DNA of 64,000 bases from Escherichia phage P-GXEC-L2P5: sequence record PQ843332.1, one strand, 5' to 3'. Within the stretch, counting starts at the first letter, position 1; every line of letters begins with the position of its first letter. The notes under the pieces were generated by a model, which saw only the letters and a list, made by a program, of their open reading frames with translations, was not told the DNA's origin and did no database searches. Made by a program: the position numbers and the translations under genes. This document shows, one piece after another, positions 4,898 through 24,175 of this stretch.

Positions 4898-4899
4898 TC

Positions 4900-9300: not shown

Positions 9301-9826
9301 TAAGTTCGGTCAGCAGTCCGCCGCGATCGAGCAGAAGATGACGTCCTCGTTTAACCACTCCGGTGGTAGCGCCACATACAGCCTTAAGGCGGGTGTGACG
9401 TATAACGGTACTTACTATGATGCGGGTATGCAGCTTTCCGTTGTAACGTCGGGCAGCGCGGTTAAATCTCGTATCGCGTTCAAAGCCGACCAGTTCTACA
9501 TCATGCACCCATCTAATGGGTCGCTTTCGTCCGCGTTCATCGTCGACGGAGGACAGGTGTACATCGACACGGCACGAATCAAGAACGCGTCCATTAACTT
9601 CGCACAGATCACGGACACGCTGCGGTCTAATAACTTCGTTGCGGGGTCGTCAGGGTGGAACCTGCCTAAATCGGGTAACGCGGAATTGAACAACGTAACG
9701 GTCCGCGGCAACCTGTACGCCACATCGGGTAACTTCGGGTTTTCTGGTGGGACCGTGACGATCGACAAGACAGGCGTAAACGTGCCGTTACCTGGCGGGG
9801 GGAGGGTGAAAGTCGGGACGTGGTAA
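6322..9826 (+). CDS. host specificity / tail tip protein, lambda gpJ-like (frame broken by duplications near 7151-7304 and 8806-8959; start codon duplicated at 6245 and 6322)
   Basis: ORFs 6322-7326, 7320-8957 and 8888-9826 are contiguous, about 1,100 aa after removing duplicates; conserved gpJ-like N-terminus MTIIYDVTGHKGGGGKQHTP; position after gpI-like gene. Confidence 0.8.
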
Positions 9827-9831
9827 ATGCG

Positions 9832-9853
9832 AAGGGGCCATCCGGCCCCTTTT
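9832..9853 (+). terminator. rho-independent terminator (aaggggccatccggcccctttt), usable on both strands
   Basis: GC stem, short loop, T-run; sits between convergent genes. Confidence 0.6.
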
Positions 9854-10818
9854 CAATACATATTCGGGATGACGAGTAGCGGGGTGGGTACGGCAATATT
9901 TTTACCTGGCATCTGGAATTGCTGCCGTGAGTAGTTGCCGATGACGCGGTTTTTAGCGACGCGCACATTATTACCCGCCATGCGTATTCCGTTCATGCGG
10001 ACGTGGTTATAGCCCCCGTTGTTCTGAATCAGCGCGCCGGTGTATGAAAGCTGGATCAGGCTGTTTCCTATATTCTGGTCGCCCGTGCCGATGTTAATCG
10101 TGCGGTCATATACGAACGGCTTGTTCACCGTCGAGAACGTGACCTGATTCTGGTTATTTGTCATAGTGATCCCGGCCCCTGGCGTGGGTGGTGTATTGTT
10201 GAATATGACAAGGTCCATGTCCACCGAAGCCGCCACATCGTCGATGCCACCATAGGCCGCGTTGCGGACGATAATACTGCCACCATCGAAGCCTACTGAT
10301 ACGTTGCCGTCATCCCAGCGGGCGAACGGGACACCGCTAACGGGCAAGGCCATACTACCGTTGACGCGTACTCGCTGTGCGTATCGGCAGGTCATTAGCT
10401 TAGACACGTTGGATATGGCGGTGAAGTCCGTCGAGTTCTCCACCAGTAAGCCCGCGTTGCGTGAACCAACCGGCAGCACTTCCATTATGACGCCAGCCCA
10501 TTGTGGTAAGCCAGAGTACGCGCCATACGCATCCTCCCCGCGCAGGGTGATACCACTATTCCCGTTGCGGGTAACAGACGTAACGTAAAACGGGTCGGGA
10601 ATTACCAGGGTCTGGTCGAATACCTCAATCACTTCTACCGGGCGAGTGAGCGCGACGACGACCTGCGACCCCTCCGTAAGCGGGGTGTTAATGGTTAGCG
10701 TCTTGTTGGACTGTGCCCGCTGGTTAAAGCTGGTGCAGTATGCTGGCGCGCGAAGCCCTGCGGTGATCTCCATGCGCGGTCTTCCGTCGTTGTAGTCGAT
10801 AAGTATTCCAGCACCCAT
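9853..10818 (-). CDS. hypothetical protein, Asn/Gly-rich with beta-helix-like repeats; co-transcribed with upstream lipoprotein
   Basis: Intact 324 aa ORF; start overlaps lipoprotein stop; repeated N-x-x-(V/I)-x-N segments; absent from second genome copy. Confidence 0.45.
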   Translation of the reverse strand: MGAGILIDYNDGRPRMEITAGLRAPAYCTSFNQRAQSNKTLTINTPLTEGSQVVVALTRPVEVIEVFDQTLVIPDPFYVTSVTRNGNSGITLRGEDAYGAYSGLPQWAGVIMEVLPVGSRNAGLLVENSTDFTAISNVSKLMTCRYAQRVRVNGSMALPVSGVPFARWDDGNVSVGFDGGSIIVRNAAYGGIDDVAASVDMDLVIFNNTPPTPGAGITMTNNQNQVTFSTVNKPFVYDRTINIGTGDQNIGNSLIQLSYTGALIQNNGGYNHVRMNGIRMAGNNVRVAKNRVIGNYSRQQFQMPGKNIAVPTPLLVIPNMY

Positions 10819-10820
10819 TA

Positions 10821-11042
10821 TTACCACTCCCGTGATTTAACTGATACTGTGCCTGAGAAATTGCCGTCGCTATCTGAAGACAGCCCAGTGAATCGCATGT
10901 CCACATCTCCTGCCGGGACTTTTTGCCCATCAACGTAGCGCAACATGCAGCTACCGTACGCAACCGTAATGCACTCGCCGTTGTTGCGTTCTACGGCGCA
11001 ACCGGATAAAAGAACCGCACAAATCATAATTAAAGTTTTCAT
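10821..11042 (-). CDS. small lipoprotein, candidate Llp/Cor-like superinfection exclusion protein
   Basis: Signal peptide MKTLIMICAVLLSGC with lipobox LSGC; AGGGGA RBS; lies between gpJ-like gene and tail fibre; mature part differs completely from paralogue at 61449-61667. Confidence 0.5.
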   Translation of the reverse strand: MKTLIMICAVLLSGCAVERNNGECITVAYGSCMLRYVDGQKVPAGDVDMRFTGLSSDSDGNFSGTVSVKSREW

Positions 11043-11122
11043 GGTATCATCCCCTATATTTGGTTGAGTTTTAGTATTACACCGCTCAACCAGGATTGCA
11101 ACCAATTTAAGAGGATTTAGCT

Positions 11123-12901
11123 ATGGCAGCGGGTACGCTATCCGTAACGAACAATAGCAAGGCTGTAGTAGGGGTCGGCACAACGTTTACCGCGTTTAAA
11201 GCGGGCGACTTCTTAACGCTGGTGGTAGGACAAGTCCCATACACCGTGGCAATCGCGTCCATTGAAAGCGCAACCGCGCTCACGCTGGTACTGCCGTTCG
11301 ACGGCCCAACGGCAACCGGCCTTGCGTGGGATGGCGTTAAGCGCGATACCATGTCGCTGGCAACGATGGGCGTTACCGTACAGGCCCAAAAAGCATTGCG
11401 CTTGATGATTGCAGATGAAAACAACTGGCGTGCAATCTTCGGCGATGCTGAAGAAATCACAGTCACGCTCCCGAACGGGCAAGTTATGCAGGGTATGTCG
11501 TGGGGCTACCTGTCGTCTTTGCTGAAGGAAGTAGACCCCGTTGAGATGCGCAACCTGCAACAACAAGCCGCCGCATCGGAAGCAGCCGCGCAAGGATTCC
11601 GTAACGAGGCGGAAGGCTTCAAGAACGACGCCAACACCATCAAGACGCAGACCAGCCAACTTAAGGCAGATACGCAGGCTATCAAGGACCAAACGAATCA
11701 GATCAAGACTGACACTGGCGTTATTCGTGATGAAGCCAATACCGCGAAGGAGGACGCGCAATCTGCCCGCACTGCCGCGCAAGGATTTCGCAATGAGGCT
11801 GAACAATTCGCTAATAGTGTTAACCCGGAAAACCTACTTGCGAAGGCCAACAACTTAAGTGATGTTGCGGATGTGGCTGTGGCGCGCGAAAACATTGGCG
11901 TAGACCGCCTAACGCAAAACATAACCAGCGGCGAAACACAAATCAGGACTGCGGCGAAGAATAAATGGATCTTCGTTAAGGAAAATGGCGACTGGGGCGG
12001 GTGGGATAATGCCAACAATAAAGCCATGCCGCTGCCGATTGCATTCGGTGGTACGGGGCGCGGCGATAACGTCGCCGAGTTCCGCCAATTCAAATCAAAC
12101 GGCGACACCCAAGATGGGTTAATCATTACGCAGAACGGGTCTGGATTTGGTGGTGTATGCTGGGGGGATTCCGCCAATAAAGTACGCTGGCGCATGGGGA
12201 TTAACGACGCCGCGGGTAATTTTAAGTTGCACTCATATGACGCGTCGGGCGCGTACCGCGATACCTTTATGGAGATCTCTGGATCGGGGATAAGCGGCAT
12301 GGTGTGTCATCGAGATATCATGGTCCGCCCAACAGAGACAGTTCCAGTGTTGTCTTTCGTCCTAAACAACGGAAAAGCTACCGTCCCGGCTGGTAACGTC
12401 CGCACGATGTGGGATACGGTTAACATCAATAGTAATATAATCTATAAATATTTTGAGAAGGGAGACGGCACTGGCTTCACAGTCAACTGGCCCTCATCTG
12501 GTGGTGTTATTGCCCTCCAGGGTACATCAGGAAGGGACTTTAAGAAAGATATTACCGACGCGGACGTTACAGAAGCGGTTGCACGCATTGAACAAATGCG
12601 CATGGTGCGCTACGTGTATAAGGACGATGTGCAGGAGCGCGTCCGCTTCGGCATCATTGCCGAGGAAGCAGAAGAGATTGCGCCTCAATACATCAAACAC
12701 CGTGAGGAGACGTACGATGTGGAGGTGGACCCCGAGACTAACGCCATCGTCGGGGGTAAGACGCGCGACCGTCCGTCGGTAGACGTTAACCCTATCGTGA
12801 TGGACTTGATGGGGTGCGCACAATATGCGATCGCTGAGTGTAAACGCCTGGCGGCGGAAGTGGAGGATTTGAAAGCCGAGATCGCGGCGTTGAAGAAATA
12901 A
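11123..12901 (+). CDS. tail fibre protein with C-terminal intramolecular chaperone (peptidase S74-like) domain
   Basis: Intact 592 aa ORF; coiled repeat region; C-terminal ...RFGIIAEEAEEIAPQYIK...DLKAEIAALKK resembles the auto-cleaving chaperone domain of endosialidase and L-shaped tail fibres. Confidence 0.7.
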   Translation: MAAGTLSVTNNSKAVVGVGTTFTAFKAGDFLTLVVGQVPYTVAIASIESATALTLVLPFDGPTATGLAWDGVKRDTMSLATMGVTVQAQKALRLMIADENNWRAIFGDAEEITVTLPNGQVMQGMSWGYLSSLLKEVDPVEMRNLQQQAAASEAAAQGFRNEAEGFKNDANTIKTQTSQLKADTQAIKDQTNQIKTDTGVIRDEANTAKEDAQSARTAAQGFRNEAEQFANSVNPENLLAKANNLSDVADVAVARENIGVDRLTQNITSGETQIRTAAKNKWIFVKENGDWGGWDNANNKAMPLPIAFGGTGRGDNVAEFRQFKSNGDTQDGLIITQNGSGFGGVCWGDSANKVRWRMGINDAAGNFKLHSYDASGAYRDTFMEISGSGISGMVCHRDIMVRPTETVPVLSFVLNNGKATVPAGNVRTMWDTVNINSNIIYKYFEKGDGTGFTVNWPSSGGVIALQGTSGRDFKKDITDADVTEAVARIEQMRMVRYVYKDDVQERVRFGIIAEEAEEIAPQYIKHREETYDVEVDPETNAIVGGKTRDRPSVDVNPIVMDLMGCAQYAIAECKRLAAEVEDLKAEIAALKK

Positions 12902-12930: not shown

Positions 12931-13580
12931 GTTTGAGTTTTCCCAGTCCATTTTGCGCCGCACCAGATGGCTTTCGTAATATTCCTTGCCCTCAACTTCC
13001 ACTAAGGGCCAATCGTTAACAATCACGTACGGTTCCGCAATATCCTCAATCACGCCGTGCGCGCTTTGCGGCCCTAACGACACGCCCACCAGGATAACAC
13101 CGGCAACACGACGGGCAAGATACTCACGAGCGCAGCGCGCCTCTACCAGTCCGCGACGGATGCCGCTGGTGGCCTTAACTTCGTAGGTCCATACGGCATC
13201 GATCACATGCTCGCGGAAGTCGGGACCGGACTTCACCTTGCGCTTGCCGACCATGATGATATCGCCGCGACGGCATCGATCACATGCTCGCGGAAGTCGG
13301 GACCGGACTTCACCTTGCGCTTGCCGACCATGATGATATCGCCGCGGTCAATGGTATTGGCGCTAAACAGGCCGGTACGCATGAGCAAGCCTTGAGGAAT
13401 ACAACTGCGCCCTCCTGCCTGCCCTTCAAGATACATGCCTGCAAACATCTCGCCCAGCACACCGACCAGTCGGCTTTGCTTGCACGCGTCAGACTTTAAG
13501 CGCCACTGGTCAAACTCGATGCTTGCTATCATTGCCGCCAGGTGGAATTGTTTACCGGATATTTCATATTCGCCGTACAT
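12928..13580 (-). CDS. hypothetical protein, possible PD-(D/E)xK-type nuclease fold (frame broken by duplication near 13195-13345)
   Basis: ORFs 13233-13580 and 12928-13254 are contiguous; GDII...YEVK resembles D...(E)xK; homologue at 63627-64000. Confidence 0.3.
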
Positions 13581-14999: not shown

Positions 15000-15182
15000 T
15001 CAAATTTGCACGAACACTACGGGCGGAAAACGTGTCACACACACAAGATGACAGCGGGCAGTCATTACAAGCCAGCCAGTAAGGTCCATGCCCAGGATGT
15101 GTTCCGGACGTGACACACGACGCACTTTGTTCTCCCTCGGGTTTATTTGGTAGCGTTTAACAATTTCGTCCACGACGCGCAT
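15000..15182 (-). CDS. hypothetical small protein (60 aa)
   Basis: ATG at 15182 follows the Dam-like stop; ends TGA at 15000; contains a Cys/His cluster. Confidence 0.3.
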   Translation of the reverse strand: MRVVDEIVKRYQINPRENKVRRVSRPEHILGMDLTGWLVMTARCHLVCVTRFPPVVFVQI

Positions 15183-15189
15183 ACTGCGA

Positions 15190-15752
15190 TCAACGACTAA
15201 GATATTCAAGGAGTTCTCCTTCGCTCATTATTTCAATTTGTGCGCTGCCGGTGGGCGGCGCTTCGTCAAAGATTATCAATTGCTGGCACTTGTTATTGCT
15301 CGGCCCGTTTCAATTTGTGCGCTGCCGGTGGGCGGCGCTTCGTCAAAGATTATCAATTGCTGGCACTTGTTATTGCTCGGCCCGACTTCGCCGGTTACAG
15401 CATGTATGAATCGGATCCGCCAGTCCAGAAGAATTATCAGGTTTGCAGTCTTCCGGGCCAGCTTCGCCCACTTCGTCGACGTGTCCTGATTCAGTAGCAT
15501 GACGGTCCGGCGTCCGTGCGCCGCGCACTCGACCCACGGCAGCGGATCGGAATACGGCGGGTTGCACCACTTCCACCCTTTCAACTCTGACCAGTCCGCA
15601 TCGAGCGCGCTGTGCTCTGCCGTGAAGTAACGCGGTAGCAGGTGGTTGGCATCGCTCGCCGCCATGTCATAACGGAATCTGTACTTCCGGCGCAGCGGTT
15701 TAAATAAAGCTGGCGGCGTGCGCCAGCTATCTTTTTGCTCACTCTTCTGCAT
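15190..15752 (-). CDS. DNA N6-adenine methyltransferase, phage Dam-like (frame broken by duplication near 15231-15382; start duplicated 15752/15829)
   Basis: WRTPPALF N-terminus and NPPY catalytic motif typical of phage Dam family. Confidence 0.65.
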
Positions 15753-15815
15753 GATCGGTACTTCCGGCGCAGCGGTTTAAATAAAGCTGGCGGAGTGCGC
15801 CAGCTATCTTTTTGC

Positions 15816-16280
15816 TCACTCTTCTGCATGGTCTGTGTCTATCGCATAAAGTGGAGTCTTACCACCTTTATTGATGACGCGCTGCACGCGCTTTGCTTCT
15901 TCGACACTAAGCGGGCGCGCGTTATGGTAGATGCTGCCGTTTGTAGGGTTGCGCCACGCCATGAGCACAAGGTCTTTACGGTCGATCTTCGTTGTGCGAC
16001 CTTTTGGGCGCACGTACTCCTCGGCACGTTTGCAATGCTCGCGCAAACCTTCGGCAGTGATGCGGTTTAGTGCAACGCTGGTTGTGTATCCGGTGCGCTG
16101 CATAATCCCCATCAATTCGAAAAGCAGTTCGAAACGCTCCTCTAGCTCCTGGCGCACTTTCTTCTCTCCTTCATATAGCGCCTGGTTGGTGTCAGCCACC
16201 GCGTTCGCACGTTCGGCCTGTTCGCGGGCTTCGAGGCATTGCGCGGCCCAGTAATTTTTCTCTTCTTGTAAAATTTTCAT
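15816..16280 (-). CDS. hypothetical protein with N-terminal coiled coil
   Basis: 154 aa ORF; stop overlaps Dam-like start; terminator immediately upstream. Confidence 0.4.
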   Translation of the reverse strand: MKILQEEKNYWAAQCLEAREQAERANAVADTNQALYEGEKKVRQELEERFELLFELMGIMQRTGYTTSVALNRITAEGLREHCKRAEEYVRPKGRTTKIDRKDLVLMAWRNPTNGSIYHNARPLSVEEAKRVQRVINKGGKTPLYAIDTDHAEE

Positions 16281-16297
16281 CGTGTCGTCTCCGGGTA

Positions 16298-16326
16298 TTA
16301 AAAAGGGCGTCCAAACCGGACACCCT
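16298..16326 (-). terminator. rho-independent terminator on minus strand (gggtgtccggtttggacgccc + ttttta)
   Basis: Stem-loop followed by T-run when read on the minus strand. Confidence 0.5.
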
Positions 16327-16328
16327 CA

Positions 16329-16361
16329 ATATAATGCAACCAATCTAATTATGCAACCAAT
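16329..16361 (-). promoter_or_regulatory. two direct copies of ATTGGTTGCA (minus-strand orientation) upstream of gene 15816-16280
   Basis: TGCAACCAAT at 16335-16344 and 16352-16361 on plus strand; same motif in at least five other intergenic sites. Confidence 0.45.
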
Positions 16362-16685
16362 TTACGAATAAAAATTTGGGTCGCGTGCAACGTCTACCAG
16401 ATACAGATTGCTGATTCGGTTGCCGTAGTGGCCTGGTGTTCGCTGGCGGCACACAACGGCGTAGCCTGGAGGAATTGTATTGCCGGTCGCGATAATCCAC
16501 GCCACGCGTGCGCCAGACAGCGTCTTTCCGTTGCATTCGATACGTGTTCCGCCGTCGGCAGTATTGATGTTGCCAATCTTGCAGCCGGTGGACTTCAGAC
16601 GAATGACGCCGGTTTTGCTGTCGTAGGAGAATAACTGGTTAGTCATTGCGACCGAAAAGTCGATGGCTTCGAATGTCGTATTCAT
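16362..16685 (-). CDS. HNH-like homing endonuclease-related protein (possibly degenerate)
   Basis: 107 aa; DGGTRIECNGKT...ARVAWIIATGNTIPPGY...GNRISNLYLV resembles NUMOD4/HNH_3 layout but lacks a clear catalytic His. Confidence 0.4.
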   Translation of the reverse strand: MNTTFEAIDFSVAMTNQLFSYDSKTGVIRLKSTGCKIGNINTADGGTRIECNGKTLSGARVAWIIATGNTIPPGYAVVCRQRTPGHYGNRISNLYLVDVARDPNFYS

Positions 16686-17531
16686 TTTAAATTTTCCTCG
16701 TTAACCGCTATCGCGAAGCCGCGCGGAGTGAGCGACCGGATTAATTTTGTGCGGGCTGATTTGCCTCCGAGGCGACTATACTGCTTCGAGTACCCTTTTT
16801 CAACGAAAACAGGTTTCTTCTCTGGCATACGGAAGCCGTTGCCGGTCCATAAGCAGGTCAGCTTCGGATATGAATCGCGGGCGTTGATGTATTCTTCTCT
16901 GGCATACGGAAGCCGTTGCCGGTCCATAAGCAGGTCAGCTTCGGATATGAATCGCGGGCGTTGATGTATTCCGGGAAGAGCGGGTGTACGTCATCATCCG
17001 GCAGATATCCCCCATACTCCCACGGGTCGAATGAGTGATCCGGTTTGCGCCACTGTGTGGAAAGCACACTGCGCGGATTCTCAATCATATACGGCACTTC
17101 GAAGAAGTCACCCAGGTAAGCGGCGATCTTCGCGGTGCGCACCGCCTTAAGCTGAAAGGCTGGGTCTTTTGCACGCCGAAGAAGTCACCCAGGTAAGCGG
17201 CGATCTTCGCGGTGCGCACCGCCTTAAGCTGAAAGGCTGGGTCTTTTGCACGCTTGCGCGGGAAAGCTGGCGCACCGCTCACTGCCAGATCCGTGCACGG
17301 AGGAAACGCATAGATGATATCTGGCGTACCGAAATCGCCATTCATCGCACGGTCTACAAAGTCCAGATCGATAAACTCATTGCGATAGCGGATTCCGCGA
17401 CCATAAATCCGGTAGTCAAGGTACGACCCGTGATCGGCTTCGGAGTAGTTGAAGCAATAACACTTATGCCCCATCTCGGCAGCACGCTCAATCATCAAGC
17501 CGCTGCCGTCAAACAATGACCAGATTATCAT
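16682..17531 (-). CDS. DNA (cytosine-5)-methyltransferase-like protein (frame broken by duplications near 16816-16971 and 17098-17253; start duplicated near 17456-17608)
   Basis: Motif I LFDGSG, motif IV PPCTD (Pro-Cys), ENP motif; ORFs 17085-17531, 16858-17142 and 16682-16927 are contiguous. Confidence 0.55.
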
Positions 17532-17604
17532 TTATAACACTTATGCCCCATCTCGGCAGCACGCTCAATCATCAAGCCGCTGCCGTCAAACAATGACCAG
17601 ATTA

Positions 17605-19329
17605 TCATTTGCGCGCCTTTTTAGCTTTCATGTATTCCATCAAGTCGTCCTGTATATCTCGCTTACTGTCGCGACGCTCGGCGACCAGTTCGTCTAGTGT
17701 TCCGCGCGCCTGGATAATGTAGACGAATACCGGTCGAGGGTGTCCGGCCTGCATCTGGCGAACCGGCCCGATACGTTCAACGATCTGCGAAAAGTGCTCA
17801 AAGTTCCAGGTATCGGAGAAGATTGCCAGGTGATGACCGCCGTCCTGCAAGTTAAGGCCGTGGCCCGCCGATGCCGGGTGTGCAAACATGATGGGGATCT
17901 CGCCCCTGTTCCACGCTTCCATATCCTTATTGCCCTGCTTACCCTTACCCAACGCGACGCCGTGCGGAAATTTCTTCTTAAGACGTGCCAGGTCATGCTT
18001 ATACTGATACGCAACGAGCAACGGCGCGCCGTTCAACTCCTCCACGATACTTTCCAGTGCGTCCAGCTTCGCGTCGTGAATCTTCACCCACTCGTCGGTC
18101 CGTTCGCCGTCTTCGTCCACCTTATACACAGCGCCGGAAGCAAGCTGAAGGCACTTAATTGTCTTCGATGCCGCGTTCGCCGCTTCCACTGTTCCGCTTT
18201 CCAGTTCGGCAAATAGCTCGCTTTCAAACTGGTCGTAAATCTTGCGGGCTTTCTTCGGCAGGTCCACAACAACCGGCGTATAGATTGGCTTGTCGCACCC
18301 GAAGTATTCAGCCGCGTCAACGGTGAGGGATACATCTGACAGACGTTGTTGTATCTCTTTCTCGGAGTTCTTTAGCGGAGCGTGCTGCATAGTGAAGCTG
18401 CCAGGCTTAACAGGCTTGCTAATGAACCAGCGGTCGGTGAATGCCTTATAGCTACTACCGAGGCGTTCACCACCGTCGACGAACCACGTCTGACCCCATA
18501 AGTCTTTCAAGCCGTTTGGTGCGGGTGTGCCGGTCAAGTTAATCCAGCGCTTGACGTGCTTATGTGCAATCGCCGCCAGTGCGCGTGCGCGCTTACTGCC
18601 CTGCTTGCTTCGATAGCCTTTCAGCTTAGTCGATTCATCGGCAACAACGACCGTAAAGGGCCACGCATCGCCGTAATAGTCGACCAGCCACTCAACCACA
18701 TCGTAGTTAACACAAACCACGTTAGCGTCGCTCTCAAGCGCCGCAATACGGTCCTTCTCCGGCCCGGTGCCGTCTACAACCAGCAGGGATGAGAACCGCC
18801 ATTTCTCCTGCTCCGGGGGCCATGTACCTGACGCAACACGCAGCGGGGCCAGCACCAGTACGCGGTCCTCATGATGGGACAGGACGCCAGTCTGGAACAT
18901 TTTATTCAGCGCCCACATTGTCGCGCCGGTTTTACCCGATCCCATTGTCGCCCAGATATTACATCGCTTATGCTTGAGGATGAACGCGGTTATCAACTTC
19001 TGATATTCGCGGCGTCGGAATCGTGCCATATCTTTATTCCGCCTTTTTCCAGACTTCGGTTTCACTGTTCCAGTTCCTTTTTGTAGCGTCGTAGTTGGTG
19101 GCGTGTCCGATGTGGACGCCTTTTTCCAGACTTCGGTTTCACTGTTCCAGTTCCTTTTTGTGGCGTCGTAGTTGGTGGCGTGTCCGATGTGGACACCAGT
19201 AGCCCGGAAGCTCTTAAATTTTTGCCAGCACACCGTCAACGGCAGCGGGTCATTCATGCCAGCAATAAACCACACGCGATCGCCCGGTTTGCATTCGCCC
19301 AGCTTGGTGAGTCGGTAATGTTCTTTCAT
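17605..19329 (-). CDS. superfamily 2 DNA helicase (DEAD/DEAH-like N domain + helicase C domain); N-terminal region carries duplication near 19070-19160
   Basis: Walker A ATMGSGKTGA, DEST box (VVADESTKL), helicase C motifs (HPASAGHGLNLQ); start choice from GGGAGA RBS. Confidence 0.75.
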   Translation of the reverse strand: MKEHYRLTKLGECKPGDRVWFIAGMNDPLPLTVCWQKFKSFRATGVHIGHATNYDATKRNWNSETEVWKKASTSDTPPTTTLQKGTGTVKPKSGKRRNKDMARFRRREYQKLITAFILKHKRCNIWATMGSGKTGATMWALNKMFQTGVLSHHEDRVLVLAPLRVASGTWPPEQEKWRFSSLLVVDGTGPEKDRIAALESDANVVCVNYDVVEWLVDYYGDAWPFTVVVADESTKLKGYRSKQGSKRARALAAIAHKHVKRWINLTGTPAPNGLKDLWGQTWFVDGGERLGSSYKAFTDRWFISKPVKPGSFTMQHAPLKNSEKEIQQRLSDVSLTVDAAEYFGCDKPIYTPVVVDLPKKARKIYDQFESELFAELESGTVEAANAASKTIKCLQLASGAVYKVDEDGERTDEWVKIHDAKLDALESIVEELNGAPLLVAYQYKHDLARLKKKFPHGVALGKGKQGNKDMEAWNRGEIPIMFAHPASAGHGLNLQDGGHHLAIFSDTWNFEHFSQIVERIGPVRQMQAGHPRPVFVYIIQARGTLDELVAERRDSKRDIQDDLMEYMKAKKARK

Positions 19330-19355
19330 CGTCATGTCTCCCAAAAATGGCGGGA

Positions 19356-19372
19356 CAAGCCCGCCGTATTAA
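19356..19372 (-). terminator. hairpin ggcgggacaagcccgcc followed by T-run on minus strand (duplicated at 19425-19441)
   Basis: Perfect 6-bp GC stem; lies just upstream of helicase RBS. Confidence 0.35.
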
Positions 19373-19449
19373 TTATTTTTGCTCTGCGCCGGTAATGTTC
19401 TTTCATCGTCATGTCTCCCAAAAATGGCGGGACAAGCCCGCCGTATTAA

Positions 19450-19623
19450 TTATTTTTGTTCTGCACGGTAGCGGCGCTGCCGTTCGCGCTCTTTCTTATT
19501 GCGGCACGATTTGCACTCTGCCCGATACCCGTCTGGACTGCGCGCAGTCTTACCGGTGTATTTGTGGAACTGGGATAGCGGCTTTACACAGCCGCAATTA
19601 CTACAACGTTTTTCTTCAATCAT
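19450..19623 (-). CDS. small zinc-ribbon protein (CxxC...CxxC), hypothetical
   Basis: MIEEKRCSNCG...ECKSCRNKKERERQRR; GAGGA RBS before ATG 19623. Confidence 0.4.
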   Translation of the reverse strand: MIEEKRCSNCGCVKPLSQFHKYTGKTARSPDGYRAECKSCRNKKERERQRRYRAEQK

Positions 19624-19663
19624 CTCTAAAATCCTCGATATGGCTAACCGGCACACTATACCG

Positions 19664-19942
19664 CTATGCGACCAATTCAGCAACCAATAAATCGCAGTCG
19701 GATATGTTGTCGATAACGCGAACGTCAGCACCGCGGCGGGCCATTCGCTCATGTTCACGTACCTGGTGCGGCTTCGGTTTTCCTCCGGGGCGCTTCACTT
19801 CGACGAACACTATTTTGCCGTTGATGATAATAATCAGGTCGGGCGCACCCGCGCGCCCCTCCCATGCCAGTTTTCGGCAGAAGCCGCCAACCTCTTTCAC
19901 CCGTCGCATCAGGTGGCTTTGAATCTTGCCTTCTGGTGTCAT
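19664..19942 (-). CDS. VRR-NUC domain nuclease
   Basis: GAPDLIIIINGKIVFVEVKRPGGKPKPHQ matches VRR-NUC signature (PD...E-V-K). Confidence 0.6.
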   Translation of the reverse strand: MTPEGKIQSHLMRRVKEVGGFCRKLAWEGRAGAPDLIIIINGKIVFVEVKRPGGKPKPHQVREHERMARRGADVRVIDNISDCDLLVAELVA

Positions 19943-20541
19943 TGTCGGCTTTTCCTTACGGCCGCGATGGCCGGTCCGATAAACTTCTTCATTTCGTCCG
20001 GGGTAAACCGGTCCCCGCGGGCTATGTTGCACTCTACGCAGCACGGCACGCAGTTATCTTTCGTATGGCCTACTGCGTTGTCGAGTCGGTCCGCGCCATT
20101 GTCGCCGGTGAATCCGCAGTATGCGCATGGTTGAGAAGTAAGGCGTAGCACGTCCTCGGTGGTTAGGTCGGTGGTTAGCCCCTTCCTTTCGTCCGCCTTA
20201 CGGTACTGAAAGAGCTTATAGTAAGCTCGGATCTCTGGTGTCCGGTGGTTGTACTCACGGCGGGACTTATTAGAGCACGACCTGCATTCTTTACGAATGT
20301 GTGACTGGCTTGCCCGGTTTCCGGGCCGGAAGTTTTCCGGCGTAAGCGGCTTGCGTTCCCCGCACTGACGGCACGTTACGATCTCCCCGGTATACTCTCG
20401 CCATACTTCGCGCGGCGGCGCTCCTCTTTCCTTATCACGTCTCTCTTTCTTATACGCCGCCATGCATTTGGCACACCACGACTGACCCTTGTTGAAAGCG
20501 GACTCATCTTTATCCGTATTACAACGCCCACAATGTTTCAT
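19939..20541 (-). CDS. HNH endonuclease with N-terminal zinc-ribbon repeats
   Basis: Repeated CxxC pairs; C-terminal CAYCG...DRLDN...H...CCVECN resembles HNH core; ATGA overlap with VRR-NUC gene. Confidence 0.5.
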   Translation of the reverse strand: MKHCGRCNTDKDESAFNKGQSWCAKCMAAYKKERRDKERGAPPREVWREYTGEIVTCRQCGERKPLTPENFRPGNRASQSHIRKECRSCSNKSRREYNHRTPEIRAYYKLFQYRKADERKGLTTDLTTEDVLRLTSQPCAYCGFTGDNGADRLDNAVGHTKDNCVPCCVECNIARGDRFTPDEMKKFIGPAIAAVRKSRQ

Positions 20542-20607
20542 ATACCCCCCGAAAAAGAAAACGCCAGACAATATTGCCTGACGTTTCCGCTAAAAGCAAC
20601 ATTTCCG

Positions 20608-23600
20608 CTACTTGCGGTATCGATACATACAATCGCCCTCTGCGGCAAGTGGGAAGCCTTTCGCCCAAATCGGCAGGTCGCACATCAGCGCGCAAAGTTC
20701 CTCGGTCGTGTAGTCGTCAGTGTCCGGCACTTCGGTGATCAATTCATCGTGCACTGACAGGACGATTTCATAGCCCGCAGCTTCAACGCCAGGCATGGAC
20801 CACGCGAGAATATCGCGACACAACGCTTGCACGATGTTCTCCGTAAGTTTGCCGCCGTAGGTGTACTGGAATCCCCACTGGCGCGTCGTCTGATTCTCGC
20901 CCTGATATTTGATGCGGGTACTGGTGCGCTTCTTGCCGGTGTCTTCGTCGATCTCGGTCGTGACAGACAGTGCGATGCCGGGGTAGCTCATGATGCGCCC
21001 CGACGGCAACTCAATTTTTAACCACCACCCCGCGGCGTTCGGGTCGTCGCGCTCCTCGTCAAAGGTTGGGTCGTGCTTCGCCTTCGTACGGACAATCTTG
21101 AGCGCTTTTCTACCGTCCGGGCGAACGTTCGCACCAGCCCAGTATGCTTTGCCCGGATTGCGGATTGCACACAACACCGCGTCCTCAAGCTCGGCCCAAA
21201 AGGCTACCGTCTTCGGGTGAGCCTCACGCCACATACGTTTGATCGCGTCACAAGTAAGCCATACGTTTTTCGGCAGTATGTAAGTCGGGCGCTCGTCCTT
21301 CTTGCCCGGCTTCGGTGGGCGTTTCGCTTCGTTAATGCGGGCGTACTCATAACCGCGCTTCGCCGCCGCCCAAATGTGATCCGGGAACGTGCCTTTCATC
21401 ACGTCCGCCATAGTGTAAAGGTCGAGTCCCAGGTTTTTAGCGAACTGCAAGAACGCCGCGACGCCGCCACCATAGCCCAGGCCAAGCTCGCAGTTATGCG
21501 CCACCAGAAAACCAGACTTAGACGCAATAAGGAACCGGTTTCCGTCTTCCACATCAATCAGGTCGTAAACCGGCTCGCAATAGGTTAACTTCCCGTTCCA
21601 GTTCAGCAATGCGGGTAAGGGCTTCATCGTACTTTCTCTGAAGCTCGGGCACGCTGCGCCGGTTACGGCAGTTTTCCGAACGGCTGACAAACCGAAGGTT
21701 TCCAGGCTCATAGTTGCCGTCTGTATCGATCCGGTCCATTTCGAAGTCGGGATTATCCCAGCCGTCCAGCGTTTGAACGTAGAGAAGAAACGACCTTTTA
21801 TCTCTCTTCCATTCGTCACATACGGCAATCCCACGACTGCCGTAGTTTTTATACCCTTTGGCGCGGGGGTTTGTCGTTCGTGATATTGCCGCTGACAGCC
21901 GGTTGAGCAGCCGCGTTCTGTGCGCATCGTCTGGCATTGCGTCATCGTAGCAAAAATACTGTTTACGATACCGCTTTGTCGCTTCAATTGCGCAGAGGTT
22001 GCATTGGGATGTTTTACCCCTTCGGACGTTGTCATACCCGACGCGTCCTGGCATCGCTCCGCAATCACATTGGGCCAGCAGTTGTCTGTGCCCCTGTCGT
22101 TTTGGTAATTCGCGCAGGATAACCAGGCGTCCATACCTCTCGCCAGGGCGCGGGCCATCGTGCACCTGTCTGAAACGAGTTGCCTTGCCTCCTTCCATGA
22201 ATGCGTCAAGATTTTGTGGTCTTCTGTCATCAAGACCCCGTCCACGTCTATCACTGGTTTCCACCCCATAAGGTGCGCGCCTTGTGTACTCACCCATTTT
22301 TCGCCGTTCCATACTTTATCCGTTGATGTTACGGCCATAATATCCTTGAACCCGCCATTGGTCAATACTTGGGTATGGCGGTGCAAGCAAGCCTTACCGA
22401 TCTGGCGTAAGTCCTTGCGGTTAGCTTTAATGTAATCCGGGTCCAGGCCGAACATTTTACCGGCAGTCTCGCAATAAATATCGCGACCGGCCTTAAACAC
22501 CATTAACGCGGTTTTCTCGCCAGCGACCCAGGCAAGGCCGCGCCCTTCCACGTTGGAGTAGTCCGCGACGACAAACTTCTTGCCCTTAGCCGGAATGATG
22601 CACCCGCGAACGGTCGAGGCGGTTAGCTTCGATATGTCATACGCCCAGTGCGCTGTCCCGCGTAACAGGGAGTTGATGCCGTTGGTGAGCATGTGCGACC
22701 GAACCCAAAACGAGACGTCGCTTTCACCCTCGCGGCGTTTAATCTTCCCTTCGTGGTCGTCGCTGTACTCGCCACGCGCCAGGTTTTGAGGTTGAAAGCC
22801 TTTACCGGCCCAGCGTAGCGTGCGCTTTGCCCCACCATACTGAAGACACCCACGGCGGCGACCATCTGCGGATAAGCCGTTAACTAGCGGATTGTACTTA
22901 GTCGATGCCGTTGATGACGCTCCGAGGCGCATTTCTATAAGCGCTTTGCCTTCGTCGGGGAAGTCCGGGTCTTCAAGCAGGTCGTTAAGTGTGGATTTCT
23001 GCGCGTTGTGGATTGTGAACGCCGGGGCGATATCACGCAGGATTGGCAGGAAGTCATTGCCTGTCAGTTTACCACCAAATCGCTCCCAGGCTTCTTCCTT
23101 CAATTCTTCCTTATGCGCCTGCACCGCTTTGATCGCGGCGTTCGCCAGGTCAACGTCGACGTAGAAGCCGCGGTCGTTAATCAACTGGTCGATGAGCAGG
23201 ATTTCATCTTCCTTAGGCGAGTTTCCCCAGTCCGGTATGCGCCAGTAGACTTCACGCATTGCGATAATATCCAGCGCGGCATAGCGCAGAAATTTGGCCC
23301 ATTCTTCCGGGTGAGTCTCGCGAGTGTAGCGGCGGATTTTGTAGGTCTTAGGGGTAGGCTTACAGAATCGGTTAATCAGCGCCTTGCCTGCCTTATCCTT
23401 CGCGTGCTCTGCGTCAACGCCCAGAACCTGGCACTGCATATCGAGGCTACCGGGCAGCGCGTGGCGAAAGGCCATAATCATAGTGTCTTCGATCTGGCTT
23501 ACCGGCAGGTCAATACCCCACTTCTCGCGGATAACCAGGCGGTCAAACAGGAGGCCGTTAGCCATCACTATTTTAGCCTTCTTGCGGGATACCCGGCGGA

Positions 23601-23796
23601 GCGCCTTGCGCAGTTCACGCGGCATTGTGGGGGATTCAGTGGCATCCCATGTCTGCACGCGGCCCTCGTCTATGGCGTAGGTGCAAATCATAATCTCTGT
23701 GGTTGGGTGCTCCGCGTAGGCGTACGCCCCAACTTTCTTCAGGTCCACCCCGCTAAATGTCTCGGTGTCGAGAAACAGGCGTTCGAAGTCTTTCAT
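20608..23796 (-). CDS. family A DNA polymerase with 3'-5' exonuclease domain, interrupted by an in-frame intein
   Basis: Intact 1062 aa ORF; exo motif FLDTETFSG; motif A VVADYSNVEGRG; motif B split as RQIGKA/intein/CELGLGYGG; motif C VHDEL. Confidence 0.85.
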   Translation of the reverse strand: MKDFERLFLDTETFSGVDLKKVGAYAYAEHPTTEIMICTYAIDEGRVQTWDATESPTMPRELRKALRRVSRKKAKIVMANGLLFDRLVIREKWGIDLPVSQIEDTMIMAFRHALPGSLDMQCQVLGVDAEHAKDKAGKALINRFCKPTPKTYKIRRYTRETHPEEWAKFLRYAALDIIAMREVYWRIPDWGNSPKEDEILLIDQLINDRGFYVDVDLANAAIKAVQAHKEELKEEAWERFGGKLTGNDFLPILRDIAPAFTIHNAQKSTLNDLLEDPDFPDEGKALIEMRLGASSTASTKYNPLVNGLSADGRRRGCLQYGGAKRTLRWAGKGFQPQNLARGEYSDDHEGKIKRREGESDVSFWVRSHMLTNGINSLLRGTAHWAYDISKLTASTVRGCIIPAKGKKFVVADYSNVEGRGLAWVAGEKTALMVFKAGRDIYCETAGKMFGLDPDYIKANRKDLRQIGKACLHRHTQVLTNGGFKDIMAVTSTDKVWNGEKWVSTQGAHLMGWKPVIDVDGVLMTEDHKILTHSWKEARQLVSDRCTMARALARGMDAWLSCANYQNDRGTDNCWPNVIAERCQDASGMTTSEGVKHPNATSAQLKRQSGIVNSIFATMTQCQTMRTERGCSTGCQRQYHERQTPAPKGIKTTAVVGLPYVTNGREIKGRFFSTFKRWTAGIIPTSKWTGSIQTATMSLETFGLSAVRKTAVTGAACPSFRESTMKPLPALLNWNGKLTYCEPVYDLIDVEDGNRFLIASKSGFLVAHNCELGLGYGGGVAAFLQFAKNLGLDLYTMADVMKGTFPDHIWAAAKRGYEYARINEAKRPPKPGKKDERPTYILPKNVWLTCDAIKRMWREAHPKTVAFWAELEDAVLCAIRNPGKAYWAGANVRPDGRKALKIVRTKAKHDPTFDEERDDPNAAGWWLKIELPSGRIMSYPGIALSVTTEIDEDTGKKRTSTRIKYQGENQTTRQWGFQYTYGGKLTENIVQALCRDILAWSMPGVEAAGYEIVLSVHDELITEVPDTDDYTTEELCALMCDLPIWAKGFPLAAEGDCMYRYRK
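21493..22389 (-). mobile_element. intein (299 codons) inserted in polymerase motif B
   Basis: Block A CLHRHTQVLTNGG, block B DGVLMTEDHKILT, block F/G VYDLIDVEDGNRFLIASKSGFLVAHN followed by +1 Cys; removal restores RQIGKACELGLGYGG. Confidence 0.7.
21554..22198 (-). CDS. HNH homing endonuclease encoded in an alternate frame inside the intein
   Basis: ORF 21554-22312 in a different frame from the polymerase; GERYGRLVIL...QCDCG...GKTSQCNLC and GYKNYGSRGIAVCDEW...DRIDTDGNYEPGNLRFVSRSENCRNRR match the common phage HNH family; ATG at 22198. Confidence 0.6.
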   Translation of the reverse strand: MEGGKATRFRQVHDGPRPGERYGRLVILRELPKRQGHRQLLAQCDCGAMPGRVGYDNVRRGKTSQCNLCAIEATKRYRKQYFCYDDAMPDDAHRTRLLNRLSAAISRTTNPRAKGYKNYGSRGIAVCDEWKRDKRSFLLYVQTLDGWDNPDFEMDRIDTDGNYEPGNLRFVSRSENCRNRRSVPELQRKYDEALTRIAELEREVNLLRAGLRPD

Positions 23797-23963
23797 TGCT
23801 TTATCCTCACTACGGCGTCAGCGCTGCCGATCATGGAGAAGATGCCGTCGGACAGGGCGATCTCTTCGCCGTTGTTGCGAATCTCGGCAACTGTGAAATA
23901 TTCCCCCAGTAGCTTGGACCATACTTGCATTCCGACTTTTACTTCGCTGGCTTTAATACGCAT
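23793..23963 (-). CDS. hypothetical small protein (56 aa)
   Basis: ORF MRIKASEVKVGMQVW...; stop overlaps polymerase start (ATGA). Confidence 0.3.
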   Translation of the reverse strand: MRIKASEVKVGMQVWSKLLGEYFTVAEIRNNGEEIALSDGIFSMIGSADAVVRIKQ

Positions 23964-23978
23964 TTTTCATTGTCCTGT

Positions 23979-24002
23979 TAAAAAGCCCGCATTAAGCGGG
24001 CT
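23979..24002 (-). terminator. rho-independent terminator on minus strand (aagcccgc-ttaat-gcgggctt + ttttta); the unit is triplicated to about 24215
   Basis: Perfect 8-bp stem seen directly; T-run on minus strand. Confidence 0.55.
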
Positions 24003-24175
24003 TGAATAGTGGGCTTTGCCCTTAACGGCGGCGACGGTTACGTGGTGCTTCGTCTTAAAAAGCCCGCATTAAGCGGGCTTGAATAGTGGGCTTTGCCCTT
24101 AACGGCGGCGACGTTTACGTGGTGCTTCGTCTTCGTCGTCGTCCATTAAGCGGGCTTGAATAGTGGGCTTTGCCC

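Follow-up and report, generated by a model that had tools for sequence, protein, structure and literature searches.

Three open reading frames resembling HNH endonucleases lie close together in the replication module of a phage genome (the window, meaning the whole 64,000-nt stretch from PQ843332.1, Escherichia phage P-GXEC-L2P5). The original prediction read this density as a sign of active intron- or intein-style mobility and regarded one of the three genes as apparently degenerate. The question raised by this locus is therefore what each of these genes is, and which of them, if any, behaves as mobile DNA.

Three HNH genes in one replication module

The window shares approximately 99% identity with the Dhillonvirus Sodalis phage SO-1 (99.2% over the region); judged by this identity, the HNH genes sit in the replication module of an SO-1-like Dhillonvirus. 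All three ORFs, referred to here as ORF A, ORF B and ORF C, are present where they had been predicted and lie on the minus strand (Table 1). Because the phage is known and the SO-1 annotation already covers all three HNH ORFs, the finding as first stated is ordinary; of the three genes only ORF C is unusual, and ORF A is fixed, truncated and probably inactive. The window is an artefactual assembly walk littered with 77-nt duplication artefacts. None of these touches ORF A, ORF B or ORF C, and the stretch from 19462 to 23968 is clean.

The proposed family assignment was borne out, and all three ORFs are members of the HNH (His-Me finger) superfamily. In profile searches, ORF A matched phrog_99 'HNH endonuclease' (E 1.5e-16), ORF B matched phrog_1035 'endonuclease VII' (3.8e-43) together with several HNH phrogs, and ORF C matched phrog_374 'HNH endonuclease' (2.7e-47) and, weakly, phrog_1035 (7.6e-5). 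No curated Pfam or NCBIfam model matched any of the HNH ORFs, or the Hint domain described below, above threshold, and ORF B and ORF C had no match of any kind in these collections, Pfam Endonuclease_7 included in the case of ORF C. The classification is therefore based on PHROGs, on profiles built here and on structure. Searches of solved structures with phmmer and with profiles returned only noise for both ORF A and ORF C. Taking the evidence together, we consider it probable that ORF A is a domesticated remnant, ORF B a free-standing homing cassette, and ORF C an HNH gene carried in the -1 frame of an intein.

Table 1. Positions of the genes and elements discussed, in window coordinates.
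Feature	Position	Strand	Description
ORF A (SO-1 gp31)	16362..16685	-	107 aa; truncated I-HmuI/HNH_3-like domain; Dhillonvirus core gene
VRR-NUC nuclease gene (SO-1 gp36)	19664..19942	-	Pfam VRR_NUC 1.4e-5; SO-1 annotation
ORF B (SO-1 gp37)	19939..20541	-	200 aa; two N-terminal CxxC...CxxC zinc ribbons, then a zinc-flanked PacI-like nuclease motif
ORF B cassette	19944..20608	-	665 nt, boundaries +/-1 nt; between the polymerase stop and the VRR-NUC start
Terminator-like hairpin in the ORF B cassette	20557..20588	-	14-bp stem, then a T-run; putative function
Family-A DNA polymerase precursor (SO-1 gp38)	20608..23796	-	1062 aa; Pfam DNA_pol_A 3e-13; phrog_17
Polymerase N-extein	23796-22390	-	
Polymerase intein	22389-21493	-	class 1; 299 codons in motif B: RQIGKA / C...HN / CELGLGYGGG (slashes mark the junctions)
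Polymerase C-extein	21492-20611	-	
ORF C (SO-1 gp39)	21554..22297	-	247 aa from conserved ATG; PacI-like 'DRxD' HNH; -1 frame relative to intein and polymerase
Candidate internal promoter	22337..22365	-	sigma-70-like TTGACC-17-TATTAT; within the 5' end of the intein, a short way before the HNH starts

The truncated HNH gene of the Dhillonvirus core

The fold of ORF A resembles those of I-HmuI and of phage HNH proteins, with an N-terminal sheet and a beta hairpin. Its match to Pfam HNH_3 scores 13.1 bits, below the cut-off of 24.8, and covers positions 5-21 of the 46 in the profile, leaving the catalytic half unmatched. The observation that ORF A has no clear catalytic His was confirmed: H86 is its single histidine, and its first beta strand ends in V-V-C79-R80, which is invariant in six homologues and lacks the Asp-His dyad (the strand was placed against the canonical motif by eye). 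In the structural model there is no helix past the second beta strand (residues 94-98); residue 107 is the last of the protein. Its structural neighbours are mostly 150-330 aa long; ORF A has no DNA-binding extension.

ORF A was found in 157 Dhillonvirus records, which represent essentially all Dhillonviruses, and it is also syntenic in Eiauvirus. Substitutions number 16-27 at third codon positions versus 1-3 at second positions, indicating purifying selection. Given this near-universal presence and this selection, ORF A is a fixed and domesticated gene that is not mobile. The description of ORF A as degenerate thus holds for its catalytic residues, which are lost, but not for the gene, which is conserved and domesticated rather than a decaying mobile one; as a core gene under purifying selection without its catalytic residues, it is silent on current mobility. 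ORF A is probably the domesticated remnant of a homing endonuclease of the I-HmuI/HNH_3 type that has kept the N-terminal sheet and beta hairpin; what would be missing are the general-base His and the metal-ligand Asp before it (Cys79-Arg80 now occupy these positions), as well as the alpha helix and any DNA-binding extension. Its most likely role in the replication module would be non-catalytic, either in DNA binding or as an accessory protein, although this function is a guess.

One may postulate instead that ORF A is still an active nuclease with a non-canonical, PacI-like site composed of Arg80, Tyr87 and/or His86, and Asn93; nicking of DNA during replication or when phages compete would be examples of its use. 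Residual activity is conceivable because Arg80 and Tyr87 are kept at the PacI spacing (Arg is followed by Tyr or His at a distance of seven residues in all three ORFs and in PacI); in addition, R80, H86, Y87, N93 and N104 are invariant, and the purifying selection on the gene is strong. Nevertheless, we consider an active ORF A unlikely. A Cys occupies the place of the Asp ligand, the C-terminus follows nine residues after the second beta strand with no predicted helix between them, and the DNA-binding extension is missing, unlike in the larger structural neighbours. Furthermore, an hhalign comparison with the ORF C (DRxD) family detected no relation, so that ORF A is not placed in the DRxD clade despite the common Arg-to-Tyr spacing. 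A non-catalytic remnant remains the interpretation that we favor for this gene.

Distribution of the intein unit and of the ORF B cassette

The insertion sites of the other two genes could be delimited through relatives without the endonucleases, as had been suggested. ORF C lies within an intein in the family-A DNA polymerase gene. The polymerase of JLBYU60 has no intein and is 763 aa long, which equals 1062 - 299; its gene is a precise 897-nt empty allele in which the blastn breakpoints abut, with the intein-less site reading ...GGTAAGGCG/TGCGAATTGGGG... (the slash marks the insertion point). The intein with ORF C occurs in only about eight Dhillonvirus records, compared to about 150 Jerseyvirus records, at approximately 80% nucleotide identity. 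Extein identity dips locally around the insertion site, as co-conversion would leave. Between Dhillonvirus and Jerseyvirus the intein is ~82% identical and its flanks ~73-75%; as the intein is only moderately more similar than the flanks, a recent horizontal transfer is at most a tentative reading.

This modest excess of intein over flank identity would also suit a scenario in which the unit is no longer mobile, its HNH gene being conserved by recent ancestry under vertical inheritance with sporadic loss. We give this scenario a minor share of the probability. In the HNH frame, synonymous changes between Dhillonvirus and Jerseyvirus greatly exceed non-synonymous ones, every family-invariant residue of ORF C is retained, and the rarity of the unit in Dhillonvirus, the exact empty site and the flanking dip all argue against immobility. 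The intein/ORF C unit and ORF B behave like mobile DNA, and judged by their distribution this mobility may be active. The predicted active mobility accordingly fits these two, but does not extend to ORF A.

The ORF B cassette is absent from EP23 and Pubbukkers, in which its flanks abut exactly at that point (blastn); JLBYU60 carries it. ORF B is present in about 27 of 160 Dhillonvirus records (at least 90% identity), and the carriers are 95-100% identical. The downstream flank of the cassette is the VRR-NUC gene, whose start shares the sequence ATGA with the stop codon of ORF B; ahead of the ORF B ATG at 20541 the cassette contains the hairpin and, after it, a GGGGGG Shine-Dalgarno-like run. 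The zinc-ribbon repeats and HNH core attributed to ORF B were both recovered: the protein contains three CxxC...CxxC pairs, the third of which flanks the nuclease motif C139xxC142...D151-R-L-D-N..G-H159..N163..C168xxC171-N. Within this motif D151, R152, D154 and N163 vary little or not at all, as does H159 (where homologues have His or Tyr), and all family-invariant residues are retained in the homologue alignment. The ORF B and ORF C families are related by hhalign with a probability of 86% (E 5e-6).

Patchy spread combined with high identity among carriers is typical of free-standing homing endonucleases such as the T4 seg and mob genes, and the pattern of ORF B is that of a free-standing homing endonuclease, with mobility suggested by its distribution. 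In the mechanism that we envisage, ORF B is carried by a cassette with its own hairpin and ribosome-binding site, placed exactly between the polymerase and VRR-NUC genes; the His-less PacI-type nuclease presumably cuts cassette-less genomes near the junction, and repair would then copy the cassette in. Alternatively, ORF B could be a useful accessory gene, for instance a resolvase or endonuclease VII, or a Lar-like anti-restriction factor, that is exchanged among phages as a moron. The PHROG labels 'endonuclease VII' and 'Lar-like restriction alleviation' point in this direction, as does the adjoining resolvase-like VRR-NUC gene. We find an accessory role rather improbable, however, given that the Lar-like match is confined to the zinc ribbons, that the nuclease motif is related to that of the homing-type ORF C family, that the gene sits in an exactly delimited intergenic cassette equipped with a hairpin and a ribosome-binding site, and that its distribution is patchy, with near-identity among the carriers.

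The polymerase intein and the nuclease in its -1 frame

GenBank carries a note on gp38/gp39 that labels the polymerase insertion a group I intron. Several lines of evidence identify it as an intein. The polymerase frame is continuous across the insertion in seven genomes and five metagenomic loci, and the marks of an intein, Cys1 (CLHRH...), the block B TEDH and the terminal VAHN/C, are invariant across six diverse inteins. A Hint profile matched solved inteins in the PDB (NEQ068 split intein, 4.9e-5; PI-MtuI, 1.3e-3; Spl DnaX, 0.018); single-sequence Pfam and NCBIfam scans of the intein stayed below threshold (intein_Cterm, 12.2 vs 15.6 bits). Hint-N occupies residues ~1-88 and Hint-C residues ~268-299, and the central ~190 codons form an open spacer without amino-acid constraint. 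On the basis of these motifs, the two intein halves would splice the polymerase back together.

The alternative implied by the GenBank label is that the insertion is a group I intron with an HNH ORF, across which the polymerase frame happens to stay open. Such introns have precedent: group I introns with HNH ORFs are reported in other phage polymerase genes (PMC3428280). Here this explanation is very improbable: a cmscan of window positions 15000-25000 against Rfam 15 found no intron family at E <= 1, the insertion is exactly 299 codons long with a first Cys, a last His-Asn and a Cys thereafter, both of its ends are under frame-0 purifying selection, and its Hint profile matches solved inteins. 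The frame is moreover open in all 12 independent sequences, with zero stops in the intein frame of the seven genomes, although synonymous resampling of the HNH codons put the chance probability of zero intein-frame stops at 0.0065 for each. The label is wrong and the insertion is an intein; no intron takes part, so the intron-style component of the predicted mobility finds no support.

ORF C was predicted to lie inside the intein, and it does lie inside the intein DNA, but in a different frame. The start at 22198 given in the original prediction is not conserved, being CTG in Jerseyviruses, and the strong AAGGAGG just past it is not followed by a start codon at a useful distance. In two Jerseyviruses a stop codon comes after ATG 22312, where GenBank begins the gene. 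It is ATG 22297 that is conserved as a start; it lies on or adjoining the invariant Trp32 codon of Hint-N, and is accompanied by only a weak Shine-Dalgarno sequence. The candidate internal promoter fits the consensus at 10 of 12 positions and is kept in Jerseyviruses, but its bases are also constrained by Hint-N coding, and promoter-like matches in the region are not above chance. Programmed -1 frameshifting into the HNH frame was also considered; no canonical X XXY YYZ site was seen by eye over residues ~25-70, and internal initiation is therefore preferred.

ORF C belongs to a family of 81,516 representative clusters, and its family-invariant residues D188, R189, Y196, G199 and N200 are all present; D188, R189, Y196 and N200 do not vary in 43 sequences. 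The protein starts with an SH3-like barrel and ends in a coiled-coil tail, with no CxxC pairs flanking the nuclease motif; the DNA for its first ~33 residues also encodes block B of the intein, and that for the coiled-coil tail the start of Hint-C. It is extremely improbable that a frameshift introduced in sequencing or assembly accounts for the out-of-frame layout and that the HNH is truly an in-frame intein domain: the window does abound in 77-nt artefacts and SS3e has single-base indels in the region, but the duplications spare the stretch containing the intein, the phase is identical and free of indels in seven independently sequenced genomes and the same in five unrelated metagenomic loci, and an in-frame HNH would need two compensating shifts.

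The two frames divide the selective constraint between them. Wobble falls in frame 0 at intein residues 1-63 and 279-299, and in the HNH frame at residues 64-250; over the latter, amino-acid identity is 54-64% in the intein frame versus 79-85% in the HNH frame. Pairwise identities of Hint and HNH correlate (r = 0.92). Nesting in the -1 frame with an open intein frame was seen in five of the five distant metagenomic polymerase loci examined, and the arrangement persists down to 43-49% HNH identity and at two insertion sites four codons apart. The recurrence of the same nesting in five distant polymerases argues that intein and nuclease have co-evolved as a unit.

According to the mechanism that we propose, ribosomes in the polymerase frame would read Hint-N, ~190 unconstrained spacer codons and then Hint-C, and initiation at the internal ATG would yield a separate 247-aa PacI-type HNH protein from the -1 frame. 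This endonuclease would cut intein-less polymerase alleles, leading to homing of the whole unit. Selection maintains an intein frame free of stops and the amino-acid sequence of the HNH frame; between very distant phage polymerases the two have diverged together as one element. We tentatively suggest that the PolA motif-B intein and its -1-frame HNH could constitute an ancient, obligately dual-coding mobile element that occupies two sites and has co-diverged down to ~35-45% identity, a proposal for which the case is at present nearly balanced. If true, this would be a widespread and previously unrecognised class of intein across phages of Gram-negative bacteria, and translation of a polymerase and of a selfish nuclease could be coupled on one mRNA.

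Significance and relation to known systems

Our analysis corrects a GenBank mis-annotation of the polymerase insertion and recasts a gene that had been flagged as degenerate. Overprinting of an intein endonuclease in the -1 frame had previously been reported only in a 2025 actinophage preprint, and a literature search of incomplete coverage returned no prior description of the Dhillonvirus/Jerseyvirus intein-HNH arrangement. The architecture is present in enterobacterial Dhillonviruses, Jerseyviruses and Kagunaviruses; its occurrence in three phage genera and in all five metagenomic polymerases suggests that it is old, stable and systematically missed by gene callers that consider one frame. 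These phages offer a tractable E. coli system for asking how a mini-intein and a free-standing endonuclease come to form a single mobile element, as in the 'splicing first' model of intein origin, and how overlapping frames are both preserved.

Each of the three genes has a recognisable counterpart from which it departs in some respect. Compared to I-HmuI and HNH_3 proteins (PF13392), ORF A has neither the DH dyad nor the NUMOD/AP2 modules, its model shows no helix, and it is fixed in its genus rather than sporadic. ORF B resembles the T4 seg and mob genes in being a small, patchily distributed intergenic cassette with its own translation signals; unlike them, it encodes a PacI-like zinc-ribbon HNH nuclease.

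Both ORF B and ORF C lack the canonical histidine of the DH motif and share an invariant D-R-x-D...G-[Y/H]...N, as in PacI, in which the catalytic histidine is absent and an omega-loop tyrosine takes its role (PMC5714182). PacI (3ldy/3m7k; His-Me finger group 20) likewise has D-R-x-D in place of D-H in its beta-beta-alpha-metal motif, and the Tyr of ORF C or the His of ORF B stands seven residues past the Arg and is followed by a structural Asn. PacI is the best structural nuclease match of ORF C, and phmmer aligned PacI (3ldy) over the ORF B motif weakly and without significance (E 4.9). Zinc-binding Cys pairs are shared with ORF B, whereas none flank the ORF C motif. PacI itself acts in restriction, as a dimeric type II enzyme, whereas the contexts of ORF B and ORF C are those of homing.

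For the arrangement of ORF C, three systems are instructive. In fractured genes, split inteins have a free-standing endonuclease between their halves (Dassa et al. 2009, PMC2677866); there, as here, an endonuclease gene of free-standing type is tied to a mini-intein without being fused to it in frame, but the polymerase gene described here is unsplit and the intein frame reads through the endonuclease gene. The ShiLan domain, a 'hidden' out-of-frame HNH in a mycobacteriophage methylase (Arsenault et al. 2025, PMC11855218), is similar to ORF C in that an HNH ORF is overprinted on a stop-free in-frame insertion, there too within a phage gene that is essential or conserved. No splicing domain accompanies the ShiLan insertion, which presumably remains in the protein as a loop, whereas clear Hint-N and Hint-C halves flank the overprinted part here. 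The closest parallel in layout is offered by actinobacteriophage inteins that carry a frame-3 endonuclease VII-like homing endonuclease (Gosselin et al., bioRxiv 10.1101/2025.01.02.630785). In these, as with ORF C, an endonuclease ORF on the same strand but in another frame sits where an in-frame domain would be expected, the intein frame is open, its central part has no recognisable fold, and the distribution is patchy. The two differ in their nucleases, which are endonuclease VII-like (IPR004211) in the actinophage inteins and PacI-like DRxD with an SH3-like barrel and a coiled-coil tail in ORF C, and in their hosts, the gene here being the family-A polymerase (motif B) of Gram-negative siphoviruses.

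Relatives and assembly state of the window

Around the three ORFs, a 9-kb stretch shares 99.2% identity with Sodalis phage SO-1 (NC_013600, genus Dhillonvirus) and 92-95% with ~150 further Dhillonvirus records. All three HNH-type ORFs are present where the original prediction placed them, and PHROG profiles put them in HNH or endonuclease VII families, and so not in unrelated ones, as predicted; Pfam and NCBIfam curated models remained below threshold for ORFs A, B and C. In the form first noted, the finding is ordinary and the three ORFs are annotated already in SO-1, whose record labels gp31 and gp37 (the equivalents of ORFs A and B) each as 'putative HNH endonuclease' and gp39 (ORF C) as 'HNH endonuclease', nested within the gp38 DNA polymerase.

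In the window, 81 tandem duplications were counted, each exactly 77 nt long and with copies 96-100% identical; untrimmed k=77 assembly-graph overlaps are almost certainly their origin. Every one shifts the frame, and real genes (Dam, Dcm, helicase, nucleotidase) are split. The last ~13 kb is a second copy of the first ~11 kb (85-95% identical), which, given a Dhillonvirus genome of ~45 kb, indicates that the 64-kb window is a walk through more than one strain and not a single molecule. No 77-nt duplication lies at 19462-23968 or inside ORF A, and the three ORFs and the polymerase are therefore intact. Between ORF A and the helicase lies a gene for a Dcm-like C5 methyltransferase, split by duplications; it is absent from EP23 and is a third presence/absence polymorphism of the replication module. 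Separately, MG065648 ('Campylobacter phage A144', 35 kb) carries a Campylobacter jejuni host label and shares 92.6% identity with the E. coli-type Dhillonvirus replication module, and further 'Campylobacter phage A1xx' records also match ORF B; the host label seems questionable, or contamination may account for the records.

Coordinates of the features discussed, with PHROG matches and frame-wise amino acid identities (Dhillonvirus vs Jerseyvirus)
Feature	Coordinates	Strand	Details
ORF A	16362-16685	-	107 aa; phrog_99, 1.5e-16
ORF B	19939-20541	-	200 aa; phrog_1035, 3.8e-43
ORF C	21554-22297	-	phrog_374, 2.7e-47
Family-A DNA polymerase precursor	20608-23796	-	1062-aa ORF
Polymerase insertion (predicted intein)	22389-21493	-	299 codons
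Outer intein parts	intein residues 1-63 and 279-299		wobble in polymerase frame; identity 91-97% (polymerase frame), 52-82% (HNH frame)
Central intein part	intein residues 64-250		wobble in HNH frame; identity 54-64% (polymerase frame), 79-85% (HNH frame)
TTGACC-17-TATTAT element	22365-22337		
ORF B cassette	19944-20608		665 nt
Dcm-like C5 methyltransferase gene	16682-17531		
77-nt duplications (examples)	13193-13346, 16815-16968, 17094-17247, 17457-17610, 19040-19193, 19308-19461, 23990-24220		
Second copy at window end	49661-62242		copy of 373-11617

The polymerase insertion and its second reading frame

The polymerase insertion starts with CLHRH, contains TEDH (block B) and ends in VAHN followed by Cys, and it sits in motif B, between RQIGKA and CELGLGYGGG. 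The original prediction proposed endonuclease-free relatives for defining insertion sites, and comparison with a relative lacking the intein was informative: the polymerase of JLBYU60 falls short of the window's by exactly 299 aa, and the two sides of the junction meet precisely in it. Single-sequence Pfam and NCBIfam scans missed the Hint domain (intein_Cterm 12.2 bits vs a 15.6 cut-off); a Hint profile derived from the end regions of six diverse intein copies matched the solved inteins Nanoarchaeum NEQ068 (4.9e-5), the PI-MtuI RecA mini-intein (1.3e-3) and the Spl DnaX mini-intein (0.018). The SO-1 record annotates gp38 as 'contains type I self-splicing intron', a label we reject given the intein termini, block B and Hint matches and an Rfam search that found no group I intron for the insertion. 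Judged by its sequence, the insertion (SO-1 gp38/gp39) is a class-1 intein on which an HNH gene is overprinted; of the intron or intein named in the original prediction, the intein is supported and the intron is not. We also observed that phrog_93 ('endonuclease') matches both the in-frame intein region (polymerase residues 487-860, E 1e-142) and the separate VRR-NUC protein, and appears to be a chimeric cluster.

ORF C does lie within the intein DNA, as predicted, but in the -1 (equivalently +2) frame of the polymerase strand and not in the frame of the intein. Across seven sequences (the window, SO-1, EP23, Pubbukkers, two Jerseyviruses and one Kagunavirus), the polymerase frame is stop-free throughout the insertion and the HNH frame is open and conserved, with 24-34 stops in the third frame. 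Salmonella phage SS3e (NC_006940, locus 490-3590), whose polymerase is annotated as three CDS, departs from these frames by two single-base insertions only; they are absent in seven related genomes and probably reflect sequencing errors in what is an old record. The conserved start is ATG 22297, giving a 247-aa product. The predicted start, ATG 22198, fails since this codon is CTG in Jerseyviruses; in two Jerseyviruses, a stop codon comes after the GenBank start, ATG 22312.

We then assessed selection per frame between Dhillonvirus and Jerseyvirus (~18% nucleotide divergence). The wobble position changes frame along the intein, and the polymerase frame of the central part is almost without synonymous changes. 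When HNH codons were resampled synonymously, 3.9 polymerase-frame stops were expected (P of none = 0.0065); together with the frame-wise identities, this indicates that selection keeps the intein frame merely open and conserves the HNH protein. The ORF C family comprises 81,516 representative clusters at E <= 1e-3, and its invariants D188, R189, Y196, G199 and N200 are all kept in the window. In an AlphaFold model (pLDDT 82.9), the N-terminus folds into an SH3/Tudor-like barrel and the C-terminus into a long helix; the model also contains a helical region and, at residues 185-212, a beta-beta-alpha unit.

Five ORF C homologues (43-49% identity) from unrelated metagenomic or genomic contigs all share one genomic context: the HNH gene occupies the -1 frame of a class-1 intein (C1...TPDH...HN, then C) in family-A polymerase motif B, with the intein frame open over the entire HNH gene and the third frame closed. 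Two insertion sites four codons apart are used, GK(A/L) before C(E/I/T)LGLGY and GKxxELA before CGFxG. The HNH products are 239-249 aa long (247-249 aa in the four loci not cut off by a contig end), their start ATG coincides with the codon for the invariant Trp32 of Hint-N or comes two codons after it, and their N-terminal 'DAGP/NAGS' motif results from reading block B (TxDH) one base earlier. Hint-part and HNH-core pairwise identities correlate (r = 0.92, 15 pairs, a small sample in which the closest pairs partly drive r), and this, with the shared nesting, argues that intein and nuclease co-diverged as one unit. By these comparisons, a -1-frame HNH gene within a PolA intein appears to be an old, general arrangement. 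Most ORF C homologues in the large protein collection come from contigs of only ~0.9-1.3 kb or from the ends of contigs; the element appears to be a point where assemblies break, consistent with intein-plus and intein-minus alleles mixed in samples.

Only ~8 Dhillonvirus records carry the intein with ORF C, against ~150 from Jerseyvirus and Kagunavirus (roughly 80% nucleotide identity); among the Salmonella-phage records that match the query, roughly half have it. Identity between the window and JLBYU60 polymerases, 0.93 overall, is 0.82-0.88 within ~200 nt either side of the insertion site and 0.97-0.98 farther away, and the 14 nt that open the C-extein match the Jerseyvirus intein-plus allele perfectly, with four synonymous differences from the empty allele. 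These patterns fit, circumstantially, either co-conversion or target-site divergence.

The ORF B cassette and the conserved ORF A

Relative to EP23 and Pubbukkers, where the flanks abut, ORF B lies in an exact 665-nt insertion that separates the stop codon of the polymerase gene from the start codon of VRR-NUC; the cassette opens with a 14-bp hairpin and a T-run, ahead of GGGGGG and the ORF B ATG. Homologues of at least 90% identity were found in 27 records, and distant ones (23-49%) are scattered in unrelated phages of Klebsiella, Streptomyces, Mycobacterium and others. The predicted zinc ribbons and HNH core were borne out as two N-terminal CxxC...CxxC ribbons followed by a zinc-flanked PacI-like motif, C139xxC142...D151-R-L-D-N..G-H159..N163..C168xxC171-N-x-x-R, with all these residues invariant across the family except position 159, where His and Tyr alternate. 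The segment aligns weakly to PacI, and the family is related to that of ORF C (profile-profile probability 86%, E 5e-6). As PacI lacks the catalytic histidine and uses an omega-loop tyrosine in its place (PMC5714182), we interpret ORF B as an intact putative homing endonuclease, free-standing and of the His-less PacI type.

ORF A was found by tblastn in 157 Dhillonvirus records (79-100% identity), essentially every genus member in the collection, and a syntenic homologue at 40% identity adjoins the helicase and methylase genes of Edwardsiella Eiauviruses; only six close clusters exist among 5.8 billion proteins. Across four genomes, third codon positions carry 16-27 substitutions vs 1-3 at second positions, and synonymous outnumber non-synonymous codon changes by roughly 3:1 to >5:1. 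Genus-wide presence and third-position bias indicate a functional, fixed gene and neither a decaying pseudogene nor a sporadic mobile gene. The predicted mobility is supported in part, for ORFs B and C, which are patchy with exact empty alleles, and not for ORF A.

The ORF A fold matched 38 BFVD models at E <= 1e-3, most of them 150-330 aa long, the named ones being mostly HNH nuclease, HNH endonuclease or AP2. Consistent with the predicted lack of a clear catalytic His, its sole histidine is H86, and C79-R80, at the end of the first beta strand, occupies what we take to be the usual Asp-His position of the HNH_3-like family. The Pfam HNH_3 match is limited to non-catalytic profile positions 5-21, and in the model no helix follows the second strand, the protein stopping nine residues further on. 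ORF A is probably a domesticated, truncated HNH_3-like domain, catalytically dead and acting through binding. Residues R80, H86, Y87, N93 and N104 are invariant, and the Arg-to-Tyr distance of 7 residues is that of PacI, ORF B and ORF C; despite this spacing, hhalign found no relation of ORF A to their clade, and we consider it unlikely that a residual, non-canonical nuclease activity is kept. The Eiauvirus homologue (Edwardsiella phage eiAU-183, locus 1360-1815) is 151 aa long, and its N-terminal extension weakly matches an I-HmuI NUMOD-like domain (E 0.0019), a hint at the loss of a DNA-binding module from the Dhillonvirus protein.

Proposed mechanism and known systems

Building on the architecture, reading frames, per-frame selection pattern, presence/absence alleles and family relationships observed here, we propose that ribosomes would read the polymerase through Hint-N, a ~190-residue unconstrained spacer and Hint-C, and that splicing out of the intein would restore motif B. 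The HNH protein would be produced separately through internal initiation, either on the polymerase mRNA or on a transcript from the TTGACC-17-TATTAT element, which is conserved but not above chance. During co-infection it may cut or nick polymerase alleles lacking the intein, and repair off the intein-plus genome would copy the entire unit. ORF B would work likewise at the pol/VRR-NUC junction, and ORF A would have given up its nuclease role.

Our literature search, incomplete in coverage, found no paper describing the Dhillonvirus/Jerseyvirus arrangement. The overprinted intein nuclease belongs to a recently described kind: actinophage inteins hold an out-of-frame (frame 3) endonuclease VII-like nuclease, called not previously reported in a 2025 preprint (10.1101/2025.01.02.630785), and a methylase insertion without splicing domains holds a hidden out-of-frame HNH (2025, PMC11855218). 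The architecture of the PolA intein and ORF C is of the same kind, and differs in its PacI-like DRxD HNH nuclease, its host gene site (PolA motif B) and its phage group; it adds evidence of long-term co-evolution between two overlapping frames.
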